A stretch of 64,000 nucleotides of DNA from a virus, in the IMG/VR virus record IMGVR_UViG_3300047089_000152, positions 1-64,000 of that record; one strand, 5' to 3'. Positions 43,320-63,250 of this stretch are shown here, piece by piece (the stretch's first letter is position 1; each line of letters begins with the position of its first letter). The translations under genes and the position numbers were made by a program. Under the pieces are notes generated by a model, which was given only the letters and a program-made list of their open reading frames with translations, was not told the origin of the DNA and made no database searches.

Positions 43320-43453
43320 GGACCGGAAGGGAAAGGCTGGGCGCGGCAGGCATCGCAGCGGCCGGGATAGCAGCGGATCGGAGCGGCAGGACAGGATTGG
43401 CAGGGCACGGCTGGGCTAGGTGTGGCTGGGCTGGGAACGGAATGGATTGGACA
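43320..43453 (+). ncRNA. Upstream pentamer-code mini-array (13 pentamers + GGCA + 13 pentamers), putative guide RNA
   Basis: ggacc ggaag ggaaa ggctg...ggagc GGCA ggaca...ggatt ggaca; extended -10 TGG-TACGCT at 43296-43304. Confidence 0.75.
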
Positions 43454-43483
43454 CTAGCCGCACCGCATGCTACAGTAGAGGTA
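43448..43483 (+). promoter_or_regulatory. Promoter for the RAMP-like gene (TGGACA-N17-TACAGT-AGAGGTA)
   Basis: -35 overlaps the last pentamer of the mini-array. Confidence 0.6.
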
Positions 43484-43520: not shown

Positions 43521-44186
43521 ATGCCACCACGCAAGACCACCACAGGCGGACCAGTCCAGCTCACCAGGCTGGCAGAAGAAGTCGCCCAAATCCACATCGC
43601 CGGGGCTACGCCACTTATTATTCATAAATGGTCGGAAAAGGCGCTCAACCAGATGCGGATCGCCCAGTCCGGGGCAATTAAGCCGCCCCGCGAACCCAAG
43701 AACGCCGAAGAAAACGCCCACGCGGCAACATACTGGGTCGACGTCGCCGAGACGATCCCCGGCATCCCCAGCGTCTCATTCAAGGCCGCCATGGTCGGAG
43801 CCTGCCGGTTCTTCGACGGCCTCCCCATGACGACAGCAAAATTGCTGTTCTTCGTCGACGGGGTCGTCAGCGAAGCCAAGGGCGACGCGCCAGCACGCGA
43901 CCTGCTCGTCCCGATTATCTCCGGCCCTGGGGAAATGCGGGAAGACACCCCGCGCAACGACAACGGAAACCCGGACCTCCGGTACAGGAATCAGTTCTTC
44001 CCGTGGAAAGCCGTACTCAACGTGCGGTTCATGCCCGCGAAGATCGCCCCCGAATCCGTCATCGCGCTAGCTGACGCCGCCGGTCGTGGCGGTGTCGGAG
44101 AATGGCGTCCATCCGCACCGAAAAGCGCGACTGGCACATACGGCCAGTTTCGTGTCATCACCCGGAAGGAATGGGAGTCGGCCTAA
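43521..44186 (+). CDS. Stand-alone RAMP/Cas7-like RNA-binding protein (Vipr-like effector)
   Basis: IHIAGATPLIIH (first RRM strand), PGIPSVSFKAAM (cf. Cas7/Csm3 PxIPGSSLKG), C-terminal G-loop GVGEWRP...GTYGQFRV; flanked by pentamer arrays. Confidence 0.75.
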   Translation: MPPRKTTTGGPVQLTRLAEEVAQIHIAGATPLIIHKWSEKALNQMRIAQSGAIKPPREPKNAEENAHAATYWVDVAETIPGIPSVSFKAAMVGACRFFDGLPMTTAKLLFFVDGVVSEAKGDAPARDLLVPIISGPGEMREDTPRNDNGNPDLRYRNQFFPWKAVLNVRFMPAKIAPESVIALADAAGRGGVGEWRPSAPKSATGTYGQFRVITRKEWESA

Positions 44187-44187
44187 A

Positions 44188-44745
44188 ATGGCGACCATCA
44201 CCGTCGAACAGCAGTGGGCGTTCAAATCGGGTGCGCGTGTCCCGGGTGGCGTCCACGCCGAGGATGTGGTGCGTGAGAAGGAACAGATGGAAGACCACCT
44301 GGGCCGCCTCGCCACCACGGAGGAAGCCGCGGAAATGGTCCTCCGCTGGCCTACCAAGTACAAGGCGCACCGGGCGTTCGCACCGGCAACCGAGAAAGAA
44401 GCACTCCACGAAGCAGTGGTACGCGGTGTTCGGAGCGCCTGGAGTTCCGTGATTCAGGTCGACGTCGAAATCACCGAGGTCACCAACCGGATTTCCGGTG
44501 ATATCGAGATCGCAACCAGGCGTGTCGACGCACCCGAAGTGAGATGGTTTCACGCCGTGCCAGCACGCGTCGGCGACACGCAACGAGTTTATGACTCGTT
44601 GCCGAATATCGCAGCCGATGCTGACAAGGAAGCGGCGCTGTCCGAAGATCTCGCCACGCAAGCACGCAACTTCTCCGCAAAAGTAGCCAGCGTCACTGGC
44701 GAGCTGGCGCGGTTGCACAAGTTGCGCAGCACCGCCGGAAATTAG
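44188..44745 (+). CDS. Accessory protein coupled to the RAMP-like gene
   Basis: Starts 1 nt after the RAMP stop; helical; directly precedes the array. Confidence 0.7.
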   Translation: MATITVEQQWAFKSGARVPGGVHAEDVVREKEQMEDHLGRLATTEEAAEMVLRWPTKYKAHRAFAPATEKEALHEAVVRGVRSAWSSVIQVDVEITEVTNRISGDIEIATRRVDAPEVRWFHAVPARVGDTQRVYDSLPNIAADADKEAALSEDLATQARNFSAKVASVTGELARLHKLRSTAGN

Positions 44746-44794: not shown

Positions 44795-46073
44795 GGAGTG
44801 GAGGGGCAGGGACTGTCGTGGCAAGGAACGGCAGGGCACGGAGTGGATTGGCAGGATAGGCTCGGCGCGGCCAGGCGGGGAGCGTTTCGGAGTGGCATGG
44901 ATTGGCTGGGACTGGCAGTATCGGATCGCAGTGGTCAGGGTAGGCAAGGCCCGGCCAGGCGGGGCTCGGTATGGCCTGCACTGGCGGGGAACGCAATGGA
45001 GTGGCAGGACCGGTGTGGAATGGCTGGGACGGGAACGGCGCGGTAGGGAATGGAGTGGCAGGAACGGTGGGGCCGGGCGCGGCGCGGCTAGGCTCGGCGC
45101 GGACGGGCATGGATTGGCTGGGCAGGACAGGATCGGAGAGCAGGGGGCTGGCGCGGCATGGCACGGAGAGGCAGGAGAGGAACGGTCGGGACAGGAGCGG
45201 CAAGGAGCGCACCGGCAGGCAGCGGCAGGGAATGGCATGGAACGGACTGGATTGGCAGGACAGGACCGGCATGGCCAGGAGGGGCATGTCCTGGAATGGA
45301 ATGGCAGGAATGGCTGGGTACGGCGGGGCCGGGCGAGCATTGGACAGGACCGGCAGTCGCGGAAGGGCTCGGCAGGGACCGGATTGCAGCGGCGAGGATG
45401 GGCTAGGCAGGAGCGGAACGGCAGGGCATGGCCTGGATCGGAGCGGCTGGGCAGGATAGGCATGGATCGGCCTGGGTAGGCAAGGAGGGGCTGGGACGGG
45501 ACCGGATTGGCAGGGCAGCAGTGGAGAGGCAAGCCGTGCAATGGCGGGGCGGGGCGTGGCATGGACTGGACCGGCAGGACTGGACTGGACTGGATTGGAG
45601 AGCAGGGCAGTGGCAGGGATCGTAGGGGTTCGGACGGGCAGGTTAGGCTTGGACGGGCTAGGCGTGGCATGGGCCGGCAAGGAACGGCTCGGAGCGGCAG
45701 GGATTGGCACGGCTCGGAGTGGCAGGACCGGACGGGTACGACGTGGCGTGGCTGGCATTGGCAAGGACTGGCAGGAGTGGATTGGCAGGGCCGGGCTTGG
45801 CATGGCGTGGCTGGGAATGGCGTGGCAGGACAGGTGGGGCTTGGCGGGCCGGGGATCGGCACGGATGGGCATGGCATGGCCCGGTAGGGCATGGCAGCAT
45901 TGGACTGGACCGGACCGGCAAGGCTTGGCTTGGCTGGGATCGGATGGGAACGGCAGGAGCGGAGCGGACTGTCGTGGCATGGCATGGCCTGGCGTGGCGC
46001 GGATCGGACGGGCAGGATAGGTCGGGCGTGGAATGGAACGGACGGGCTGGGCATGGAACGGCAGGATAGGAGT
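44795..46073 (+). ncRNA. Main pentamer-code array: 21 units of 8-17 G(G)N-NN pentamers, each closed by GGCA (putative multi-guide RNA precursor)
   Basis: 44795-46063 is exactly 237x5 + 21x4 nt; GGCA marks at 44850, 44914, 45003, 45057, 45121, 45170, 45254, 45303, 45352, 45406, 45450, 45514, 45573, 45637, 45721, 45770, 45824, 45893, 45952, 46011, 46060. Confidence 0.85.
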
Positions 46074-46130: not shown

Positions 46131-46283
46131 ATGATCTTGTGCTCGTGCGGCCATCCTGCGGTCGAGCATGACCTGAACCGTTCGGAGACTAAGCGAACAG
46201 TTTGCCTGACCACCGAACGGACTACGAAATGTCCGTGCGTGCTATATTCACCAGACCTTCGTGATACACTAGAGGTACAATGA
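46131..46283 (+). CDS. Small Cys/His protein
   Basis: CSCGH...H...C...CPC. Confidence 0.45.
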   Translation: MILCSCGHPAVEHDLNRSETKRTVCLTTERTTKCPCVLYSPDLRDTLEVQ

Positions 46284-47149
46284 ACGAGACCATAGAACGA
46301 GAAGACCGCAGGGCCGTCACCGCGCTCACCTCCGGGGAAAACGCCACGAAGGTCACCGTCAAAACAAGCGACGGCAACTACGAAGAACGACAGCTAACCG
46401 TCCACGGGCTCGCACGGCTGATTCCCGTGATCGCACTGGGCGACATGGACCGGCTGATAGACGACGTGCGCGAACACGGCGTCCTCGAACCCCTGATCAT
46501 GTTCCAGGGACAAGTCCTTGACGGACGCAACCGGCTCGCCGTAGCTTCGGTCGTCGGCGTACCCGTGCAGCTCACCGAATTCGACGGAGACGAAGCCGCA
46601 GCCAGAAACTTCGTCTGGTCCGCGAACGCTGCGAGGCGGCACCTGTCCGTCCCCCAGATCGCGCTGGCCGCTGAACGGTTCGGTTTCGTCGACGCCGCCA
46701 AAGCCGAAGCAGGCCCCGACGACCCCAACCTGGATATCCGCTCGACGGTCGCACCATGGGCGCGAATCGCCGCGCGAAAGGTCGGTGCGATCACCCCGGC
46801 TACACTGGAACGGTTCCAGCAAGCCAGGATCCCCGAGGCACCCGACACGATGCGCCGGGTCGATTCCGGTGAGATCCGCCGGGTCGACGTCGCGGTCAAG
46901 GAAGCGGTCGCGGAGCGGACCGTGCTCACCGGCCGTCTCATCCAGGTTCCACCCCCGGTTGCGCGTACCGCGTGGGACCGGCTGGGCTGCGCGCGGGGTG
47001 ACGTTCTCGCCGCGGAACGCGCCATCCTGGCAGGGGACTGGGGTGGGATGGAAAGGGACCAGTTCGCTGTCCGCGCCCGTGAAATCCAGGGAGCCCTGAT
47101 CAGGATTCAGAATTTGTATCGTTATGGATCGGGCGGCAGGACCGGTTAG
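46280..47149 (+). CDS. ParB-like N-terminal domain protein
   Basis: DVREHGVLEPL...LDGRNRL...FVWSANAARRHLS. Confidence 0.8.
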   Translation: MNETIEREDRRAVTALTSGENATKVTVKTSDGNYEERQLTVHGLARLIPVIALGDMDRLIDDVREHGVLEPLIMFQGQVLDGRNRLAVASVVGVPVQLTEFDGDEAAARNFVWSANAARRHLSVPQIALAAERFGFVDAAKAEAGPDDPNLDIRSTVAPWARIAARKVGAITPATLERFQQARIPEAPDTMRRVDSGEIRRVDVAVKEAVAERTVLTGRLIQVPPPVARTAWDRLGCARGDVLAAERAILAGDWGGMERDQFAVRAREIQGALIRIQNLYRYGSGGRTG

Positions 47150-47207
47150 GACGGGCTAGGAATGGCTGGGCTGGGCATGGACTGGAATGGCAGGAATGGA
47201 ATGGCTA
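47135..47207 (+). ncRNA. Pentamer-code unit (GGCA + 10 pentamers + GGCA + 3) between the ParB-like gene and the next gene
   Basis: ggca ggacc ggtta ggacg ggcta ggaat ggctg ggctg ggcat ggact ggaat ggca ggaat ggaat ggcta. Confidence 0.7.
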
Positions 47208-61652: not shown

Positions 61653-62708
61653 TCAGTGTTCCAGGAGTTCCAGCAGGCGTTTCGCGTTGCTGGTGAACGT
61701 GCGGTCAGCGATAGCCTCACGCGCTTTGTATGCCGCCTGTTCCCGTTCACTATCGTGGGCGAGCCACCAGCGGATCTGATCCCCTGCCTCTTCCGGGCTG
61801 GAGAACGTAGGGAGCATGTCCAGCACCGAATCCCCCTCCGCGCGGGGATCGCGGAGGTAGAAAAGCCCGCACGCCGCTTGTTCCACCTCACGGGGCCCCA
61901 TCGCCCACGGGACGGCGGTGCTGTCAGCGTCCGCGTCGTCGTATTCGCGGCGGTAAAAGTTGATGCCGCACTTCGCGTTGCGGTACACCTCGGCCACTTC
62001 GCTGTTGTCGACACAGTCGTCAATGTCATGGCCCATGAACCTGCGCAGCGGAGACTTCGACGCCCCCGGCCAGCAGCCCCCCAGCAGCACGTCCAGGCCG
62101 TCCAGGTTCATCCGCTCGAAAAAGTCGATGCGGGACTGGAACCCCGTCCCGATGAACGCCAGGTCCGCCGCGAGGTCCACGTTGACAGGGCCCGTGCGAG
62201 GGTAATGCACGGAAGGCCGGTACGCGTGCGGCGCATACTCCGCGACGGCACCTAGCTCCCGGTACTGCTCAATGTTCACCGGGTCGTTCAGCAAGACGAT
62301 GTCGCTGCATTCCGCGCGTTCCAGCTGCATCTTTTCCTGGTACGGCGACTCGGTGGCGAGCAGGACAACTTTCATCCGCCGCTGCTGAAGCAGGGCCATC
62401 AGCCCCGGGGTGACGAAGAAACCGGAAACGAAAATAACCGCGTCTGGCCAGAACGTGAAAGCCGCATGAGAGATGCCCTGCATCGCCATGCGCAGCGCGT
62501 CCTCGTCGTTCATCGCCCGGCGTACCAGCGGGTGCCCCGACTCGTCCACGTCCCCCGTGGAAATCAAAGCATGACCGTAAAATTGTATACGATCATCAGA
62601 ATTAAAACTGGCAACTTCACACCCAAGCTCCCGCAGCGCCTCACACCAACCGTCATGCACATCAGCCACAGAAAAATTTGGGCCTGGATGTACCACTAGT
62701 ATGCGCAC
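61653..62708 (-). CDS. Glycosyltransferase (CgeB / Glyco_trans_1_2-like)
   Basis: DLAFIGTGFQSR...VAEVYRNAKCGIN...GPREVEQAACG. Confidence 0.8.
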   Translation of the reverse strand: MRILVVHPGPNFSVADVHDGWCEALRELGCEVASFNSDDRIQFYGHALISTGDVDESGHPLVRRAMNDEDALRMAMQGISHAAFTFWPDAVIFVSGFFVTPGLMALLQQRRMKVVLLATESPYQEKMQLERAECSDIVLLNDPVNIEQYRELGAVAEYAPHAYRPSVHYPRTGPVNVDLAADLAFIGTGFQSRIDFFERMNLDGLDVLLGGCWPGASKSPLRRFMGHDIDDCVDNSEVAEVYRNAKCGINFYRREYDDADADSTAVPWAMGPREVEQAACGLFYLRDPRAEGDSVLDMLPTFSSPEEAGDQIRWWLAHDSEREQAAYKAREAIADRTFTSNAKRLLELLEH

Positions 62709-62748
62709 GGAAGCATCATCCTGTCCTAAGTGTGGTAGGATAGTAATT

Positions 62749-62817
62749 GCATTGGAGGGGCATGGCATGGCACGGCCCGGAGTGCTGGGGTGGGGAACGG
62801 AATGGATGGGCAGGATA
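62749..62817 (+). ncRNA. Solo pentamer-code unit (12 pentamers + GGCA + GGATA), antisense within the tail operon
   Basis: gcatt ggagg ggcat ggcat ggcac ggccc ggagt gctgg ggtgg ggaac ggaat ggatg ggca ggata; TGG-TAGGAT -10 at 62733-62741. Confidence 0.75.
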
Positions 62818-62864
62818 GATCCAGGTTGGTGCGCATCTTTTACAGGTGCGCACCAACCTGGATC
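62818..62864 (+). terminator. 18-bp perfect hairpin immediately 3' of the solo unit
   Basis: gatccaggttggtgcgca...tgcgcaccaacctggatc. Confidence 0.65.
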
Positions 62865-63250
62865 AGAAATGAGCATCCCATGTATTGCTGGCCGGCGTAT
62901 TCGGTGAGTCCGTAGGTCATCACCTGCAATACGACCGTGAACTCCACCGCCCCGCCCAGGGTCGGGTCAGCCTGCACCGCCGCGTTGATGCTTTTAGTAC
63001 CGGACGTGGACACGTAGTCGTCGATTACGTCCTGGCCGGAAGCGTCGTTCGCGGCGGATACCAGCACGACGGCGAGGAGATTGACCTGGGTTTCGCCGTC
63101 CATCGTGATGCCGTAATTGACCGCTGGCCGGTTCGGGATTATGACCGCGCATGGCGGTATGACCTGCCCGGGTGCGATCGCGTGTACGTTCAGCCCGGTG
63201 GTGGATAGCCGGGTTGCGAGCGCGACCCTGATCGCTTTGACGTTAGCCAT
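62840..63250 (-). CDS. Tail terminator / completion protein
   Basis: IRVALATRL...SINAAVQADPTLGG; position. Confidence 0.7.
   Translation of the reverse strand: MANVKAIRVALATRLSTTGLNVHAIAPGQVIPPCAVIIPNRPAVNYGITMDGETQVNLLAVVLVSAANDASGQDVIDDYVSTSGTKSINAAVQADPTLGGAVEFTVVLQVMTYGLTEYAGQQYMGCSFLIQVGAHL

Follow-up and report, generated by a model that had tools for sequence, protein, structure and literature searches.

A stand-alone VIPR guide gene (solo vrRNA) probably occupies positions 62733-62864 of the window, by which we mean the whole stretch of 64,000 nucleotides analyzed here (positions 1 to 64,000 of IMG/VR record IMGVR_UViG_3300047089_000152, belonging to a 104-kb soil phage genome with 63% GC). 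Judged from its sequence, the guide would be directed against the tail terminator (TT) allele of relatives and be kept beside the phage's own diverged allele. The first-pass annotation had proposed that a distant effector uses, in trans, a complete unit of promoter, guide and hairpin, and this reading is supported at the sequence level by a shared pentamer grammar, a conserved -10 element, a hairpin that occurs only together with the cassette, and hairpin arms that covary with the TT codons.

VIPR systems have been known only since 2026, mostly from enterobacterial phages, and comprise the RAMP protein Vipr, an accessory gene (vap) and vrRNA guides (bioRxiv 10.64898/2026.04.26.720920, 10.64898/2026.04.26.720927). 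Each vrRNA is built from 9-16 repeats of a pentamer whose GGY scaffold is fixed, and its NN dinucleotides pair with double-stranded DNA while one target base, usually the codon wobble base, is skipped per repeat; a cut-off of 80% NN match was used for natural targets, and silencing by the SUSP1 VIPR was demonstrated on reporters and lambda (bioRxiv 10.64898/2026.04.26.720920). VIPR itself, 'staggered' arrays, NNNGG repeats and solo vrRNAs are already described in the 2026 preprints, which also report targets on both strands and R-loop formation starting at the guide 3' end in SUSP1. An operational rule defines solo vrRNAs as those with no Vipr on the contig or with the nearest one beyond 20 kb (bioRxiv 10.64898/2026.10.15.759431).

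Structure and distribution of the cassette

Each base and coordinate in the element list of the first-pass annotation was reproduced when positions 62400-63200 were read. The cassette is located between two genes of the - strand, the TT gene (62840-63250, 136 aa; phrog_17840, E 1.4e-27) and a glycosyltransferase (GT) gene (61653-62708; PF13524, E 8e-13), and is oriented opposite to the tail operon. The GT gene starts at GTG 62708, where the N-terminus MRILVVHPGP kept in all relatives begins, and the cassette thus fills an intergenic gap of 131 nt. The + strand TGG-TAGGAT that had been claimed between these genes was found at 62733-62741 (TGG at 62733-35, TAGGAT at 62736-41) and may act as an extended -10 promoter element. 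A 7-nt spacer (62742-48) separates it from the guide region (62749-62808, + strand), which consists of 12 pentamers of the form G-G-(A/C)-N-N with NN as the specificity positions; G1 is present in 12/12 and G2 in 10/12, the other 2/12 beginning with GC. GGCA punctuation (62809-12) and GGATAG (62813-18) follow, together forming a putative unit boundary or 3' handle (62809-62818, + strand).

The cassette is closed by a 3' hairpin (62818-62864, + strand). The 18-bp perfect hairpin described earlier was recovered with arms at 62818-35 and 62847-64, and its distal arm indeed consists of the last codons of the TT gene, whose stop lies inside the loop, the loop carrying the complement of the TAA that ends the - strand ORF. 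RNA folding gave a stem of 21 pairs including wobble pairs (18 of them perfect) with a 5-nt loop (z = -5.3), and 0/200 shuffled sequences folded as well. No U-tract follows the hairpin on either strand, so that it does not qualify as an intrinsic terminator despite its stem, and an Rfam search over the whole window returned no match.

A generic sigma-70 promoter and terminator scan made no -35/-10 call at the cassette, and any promoter function is therefore ascribed to the extended -10. The motif TGNTANNNT has only 52 occurrences in 208 kb, yet it is situated 8-20 nt upstream of 5/8 arrays, and TGGTAnnAT occupies an equivalent position in all three cassette-bearing loci (the window and the relatives L004 and L006). 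The looser form TGGTAnnnT is present in 24 copies in the genome, upstream of several arrays and genes (43296 and 62733 in the window, 79478 and 90430 in the genome, and about 20 others), and is probably the main promoter -10 type of this phage. The ORF extension 62708-62876, which the first-pass annotation had raised as a possible translated and conserved protein, contains stop codons in L004 and L006, and in relatives without the cassette the GT protein begins at MRILVV; the pentamers were accordingly rejected as a coding extension of the GT ORF.

Relatives were obtained from 14 IMG/VR loci and 3 additional metagenome loci, with TT proteins 59-82% identical, and the TT-GT synteny holds in all of them. 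At the syntenic site, where presence or absence had been proposed as a check, the cassette is present in 2 of about 10 distinct relatives, and only L004 (82% TT identity) and L006 (69%) carry it, in the same orientation. The TT-GT gap measures 8-22 nt in several loci, and some contain a small zinc-ribbon-like ORF, which was located at L006:2613-2760 and also occurs in L005, L008 and L009 without a cassette. Cultured phages yielded no match to 58-64 kb by megablast or to the TT protein by tblastn, TT relatives were not found in GTDB genomes, and a JGI metagenome search added only duplicates and three cassette-less loci.

The L004 and L006 cassettes keep the scaffold and differ in NN. A strong hairpin directly follows the repeats in all three cassette loci, and no hairpin was found at the TT-GT junction of the cassette-less relatives. 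Compensatory double changes affect 9/21 stem pairs among the three sequences, and one side of the stem matches the C-terminal TT codons of its own locus (IQVGAHL here, VQCGAHL in L004). The TT gene and the cassette of L006 are set apart by the small ORF, and the hairpin there holds a displaced copy of the TT 3' end. The arm that tracks the TT codons and the displaced copy in L006 support a stem built on flanking coding DNA. The hairpin is thus a selected stem with one arm of coding DNA, and the inverted duplication that the first-pass annotation had proposed as its origin is plausible.

Two further observations were made on these loci. The L006 hairpin contains a second copy of the last TT codons with the stop, which hints that the cassette moved or that the ORF was inserted by recombination at a short sequence. 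In the L004 cassette (L004:1043-1165, minus strand) the 5-nt register is lost after 8 units through a 1-nt insertion, and GGCA is absent, from which it appears that cassettes at this site can decay; its first half is similar to the GT-reading guide of L006 and its second half to the TT-reading guide of the window, and it is possibly a recombinant or decaying copy.

The VIPR complement of the phage

The source virus is a VIPR-positive, actinophage-like virus. Its pentamer arrays comprise a main array (44795-46063), a smaller array (43320-43463) and six single-unit cassettes at 33.4, 47.1, 62.7, 79.5, 86.6 and 90.4 kb. Phased GG runs (at least 8/10) were detected in only 9 places in 208 kb (both strands), all of which are pentamer arrays, so that the repeat run of the cassette exceeds what chance would produce. 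The main array is a staggered vrRNA array on the + strand, 1.27 kb in length, with 21 units of 8-17 pentamers, each closed by the four-base GGCA, and the same GGCA|GGA boundary is found between all 21 units and also ends most solo cassettes, whose common end is the conserved GGA(A/T)T-GGAT-GGCA-GGATA. Pentamer composition is the same in the main array (238 pentamers), the other solo cassettes and the cassette under study, with G1 in 100%, G2 in 83-96%, A/C at position 3 in about 90%, and positions 4-5 free.

The vipr gene (43521-44186, + strand) is situated directly upstream of the main array and encodes the RAMP protein expected to load the guide. When a profile of 40 Vipr homologues was searched against PDB, the sole match was 36pp, 'SUSP1 Vipr protein' (E 4.5e-6), and the G-loop GVG(D/E)WRP was aligned in this match. 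An AF2 model from the single sequence was unusable (pLDDT 34), and the protein was refolded with an alignment (pLDDT 86.5). With this model Foldseek gave 34 matches at E <= 0.001, those listed being CRISPR effector complexes assembled from Cas7-type subunits (Csm, Cmr, type VII and type IV-A), and the phage Vipr is therefore predicted to adopt a Cas7/RAMP fold. A candidate vap (44188-44745, + strand) was assigned by its position directly after vipr and has no Pfam or PHROG match. The effector had been placed about 17 kb from the cassette; this holds as an approximation, vipr ending 18.5 kb and the main array 16.7 kb away from it.

Homologues of this Vipr with 47% identity, annotated as hypothetical, are encoded by cluster F mycobacteriophages (Saal gp51, Gorge, Quico, Florinda and others) and some Gordonia phages. 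In Saal (L026, NC_023580.1; 36643-36815 and 36823-37569) a GGCNN array is located directly upstream of the homologue, beside the immunity region, and no detached arrays were seen in its first 50 kb. The cluster F phages are cultured on a tractable host and may offer a bench system.

The cassette shows 12 tandem pentamers with a fixed scaffold and hypervariable NN, within the 9-16 expected of a vrRNA; Vipr is encoded in the same genome; its target emerges only under the 1-nt skip, with the skip at the wobble base; and the guide has no self-target at or above 80% NN (79%). It falls short of the distance rule for solo vrRNAs (more than 20 kb), vipr ending 18.5 kb away in the same genome. With its own promoter-like element, a single unit and a position detached from the locus, the cassette would nevertheless work like a solo vrRNA.

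Compared with the SUSP1 type II VIPR, the phage system shares a small RAMP protein, phage-borne pentamer guides with a GG scaffold and free NN, and one-base-skip reading aligned to the codon wobble, and its main array, with 5n+4 spacing and the end of one unit being the start of the next, resembles the 'staggered' arrays. It differs in the third scaffold base (A/C here, a pyrimidine in SUSP1), in the location of the guide gene, which lies in the late operon at a distance of about 17-18 kb from vipr, and in the 3' tail, where no pseudoknot was found and its place may be taken by the GGCA-GGATAG boundary, joined in the solo genes by the long, covarying hairpin. The solo vrRNAs of F5 satellites and VIPR-null SUSP1-like phages (bioRxiv 10.64898/2026.10.15.759431) are analogous in being single genes away from vipr that would use Vipr in trans, borrowed in their case, and in matching self less well than competitors. 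Whereas the published solo vrRNAs reside in satellites or at a deleted vipr-vap site and target vipr, other vrRNAs, satellites and host REP decoys, the present ones, at least six, are scattered through a VIPR-positive phage, and the cassette under study reads the adjoining structural gene. In the 2026 VIPR preprints we found no description of guide genes scattered through a VIPR-positive genome, of a guide beside the gene family that it reads (including one antisense inside a tail operon), or of a codon-family recoding footprint in a resident allele.

Two other competitive systems are comparable. Virus-borne mini-CRISPR arrays (Nat Commun 2019, PMC6858448) likewise carry a minimal guide against close relatives, which are excluded, while the own allele is mismatched; they differ in using contiguous spacers between CRISPR repeats and host Cas proteins, whereas the present phage encodes an effector of its own and has a gapped code. 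Free-standing homing endonucleases in T-even phages cause marker exclusion with linked resistant alleles. As in that case, the element adjoins the gene whose foreign alleles it would attack, with a resistant own allele in tight linkage; their recognition is by protein and cleavage is demonstrated, whereas here it would be RNA-guided, and only silencing is known for VIPR.

Reading of the guide on resident and foreign alleles

The 12 NN dinucleotides were compared with both strands along the entire genome, allowing skips of 0, 1, 2 or 3 bases. Only the 1-nt skip exceeded the shuffled-guide null, with 19/24 against a null maximum of 18 (0/60 shuffles reached 19), the 3-nt skip merely recovering the cassette itself. 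The unique genome-wide best match, 63132-63166 (- strand), is located in the adjacent TT gene, 314 nt from the cassette. The read positions are codon positions 1-2 of TT residues 29-40 (QVIPPCAVIIPN), the skipped base is always the wobble base, and the guide, which decodes to QIVPPTGVIIPN, is complementary to the TT coding strand. Three other solo guides match a neighbouring gene in frame with the same polarity (18/20, 20/24 and 19/26), so that the best match lies within 1 kb for 4/6 solo guides (chance about 2e-6), while none of the 21 main-array guides matched the own genome above the shuffled null. As the solo guides match their neighbours and the main-array guides do not, the detached guides form a distinct class that reads homologues of the neighbouring genes.

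Several additional matches were recorded. Against a 119-kb relative (G001) one main-array guide reached 23/34 (68%), one position above the shuffle maximum, and the rest were at chance level. The solo guide 47139-47188 matches 47099-47127, at the 3' end of the upstream gene 46280-47149, at 18/20 (90%), which exceeds the 80% natural-target level of the preprint, and it may be self-targeting or autoregulatory; in the only relative found for this gene (L027/G001) it reaches 14/20 at best. Irrespective of cassette orientation, all five decodable detached guides (four here and one in L006) show complementarity to the coding strand, which is possibly a hint of an added effect at the mRNA level or just a matter of small sample.

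At the homologous TT site the guide of the window matches L004 at 22/24 (92%), the best natural allele, and the L005 group at 20/24, compared with 19/24 for the own allele and most other relatives and 15-17/24 for the lowest relatives. The own allele thus differs at 5/24 positions and that of the closest relative, L004, at 2/24, from which a role against relatives is likely, namely putative transcriptional silencing of the tail operon in related competing phages or satellites with a sensitive allele. Discrimination between self and non-self is thin for this guide, since its self match (79%) narrowly misses the 80% cut-off of the preprint and equals that of most relatives; no mismatch tolerance has been published for VIPR. 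A perfect or 23/24 TT allele was not found in IMG/VR, JGI metagenomes or GTDB genomes, and a single 18-base core match, in L018, was dismissed as chance, being out of frame and outside the TT gene.

The family-unique residues of the own TT within the footprint, I31 and C34, both lie at guide mismatches; the guide has the family majority state (V) at I31 and the state of L005 (T) at C34. Enrichment of window-unique residues in the footprint was not significant (2/12 vs 11/136, p about 0.25). The footprint contains no Leu, Ser or Arg, and escape by synonymous change is therefore not available to the TT gene. Among the self mismatches, 4/5 are in the 3' half of the guide.

The signal was clearest in a recoded footprint observed for the 17-unit guide of L006, which occupies the syntenic site and reads the GT gene, the other neighbour of the cassette. 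This guide matches the GT allele of L007 at 33/34, that of the window at 32/34 and those of six other relatives (L004, L005, L008, L010 and L011 groups) at 29-31/34, compared with 27/34 for L006 itself and 23/34 for the most distant relative, L017. The own GT allele of L006 encodes the same amino acids but has changed codon family at two Leu (CTN to TTG) and at one Ser (TCN to AGT), and such Leu/Ser codon-family switches are the only synonymous changes visible to a reader that skips the wobble base. Conserved six-fold-degenerate residues were switched in 4/4 cases inside the footprint vs 4-11 of about 60 outside (Fisher p 9e-5 to 1e-2 over eight comparisons), and 3/4 of the switches lower the self match.

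A similar relation holds for the solo guide at 79.5 kb (S79k), which reaches 22/24 in G001 (44709-44743) vs 20/24 in self. G001 (L029-L034), 97% complete and without vipr or pentamer arrays, is a candidate natural target genome.

Proposed mechanism, alternatives and implications

According to the proposed mechanism, transcription from the extended -10 on the + strand, antisense to the late operon, would yield an RNA of about 115 nt composed of a short leader, 12 GG(A/C)NN repeats, the GGCA-GGATAG boundary and the strong 3' hairpin, which would stop or cap the RNA in place of the SUSP1 pseudoknot. Vipr from the locus about 18.5 kb away would polymerize along the GG(A/C) scaffolds, forming a filament of about 12 protomers that exposes the 12 NN dinucleotides, and these would read double-stranded DNA while skipping one base at each repeat. 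Binding of this complex to a sensitive TT allele in related phages or satellites would block their late operon, and the position of the guide beside the own diverged allele would let guide and immunity be inherited together through recombination.

Three other explanations were weighed against a guide gene directed at relatives. The Vipr-RNA complex might bind the own TT gene despite the 5 mismatches and tune or time the late operon, for which the best match in the own genome being the adjacent gene, a self match close to the published threshold, the 90% self match of the guide 47139-47188 and the complementarity to the coding strand in all decodable cases can be cited. We nonetheless regard such self-regulation as unlikely: for three independent solo guides the relatives' alleles match better than self, the synonymous recoding in L006 lowers the self match, opposite to what autoregulatory selection would produce, and most of the self mismatches fall in the guide 3' half, where R-loop formation starts in SUSP1. 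It is still less probable that the cassette is a decayed or orphaned remnant, a once-working guide now without target or function that serves as intergenic filler. The failure to find a perfect target in any collection searched, the damaged L004 copy (1-nt insertion, GGCA missing) and the lack of any cassette in most relatives are in keeping with decay, but in the window copy the 60-nt register is unbroken, the boundary motif and the -10 are retained, and so is the perfect 18-bp stem, which moreover covaries with coding changes, and a missing perfect target means little when the databases hold only about 10 distinct TT alleles.

The position of the hairpin exactly at the end of the TT gene, its ability to fold on either strand and the perfect complementarity of a + strand RNA to the late mRNA over about 115 nt would also suit a plain cis-acting element, that is, a hairpin that ends or attenuates the TT mRNA and a + strand RNA that acts as antisense or by interference, the pentamers being incidental. 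This is very improbable in our judgment, because relatives without pentamers have no hairpin, in some of them TT and GT are only 8-22 nt apart, the pentamer grammar is that of VIPR arrays, no decoded match emerges unless the 1-nt skip is applied, and the G-U pairs of the stem exist only in the + strand RNA. A guide gene against the relatives' TT allele is thus the explanation we retain.

For the biology of these phages, the finding means that a VIPR-positive, actinophage-like virus carries single guide genes spread through its genome and beside the gene family that is read. A further proposal, which we put forward tentatively and with less than even confidence, is that the scattered guides and the neighbouring diverged alleles are linked 'poison-antidote' pairs, a form of RNA-guided marker exclusion. 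If this were true, each solo guide would silence the common allele of the adjoining structural gene in co-infecting relatives or satellites, and the resident allele would have evaded it through altered amino acids or through Leu/Ser codon-family recoding; survival would be limited to recombinants with guide and allele together, which would drive both through the phage population and leave a readable recoding footprint in phage structural genes. The recoding exactly inside the guide footprint of L006 provides in-sequence evidence of selection by the gapped code in nature, with self-avoidance through a few synonymous changes that alter codon positions 1-2. These observations suggest a rule by which a guide linked to an immune allele permits an allele-specific war on close relatives without self-harm.
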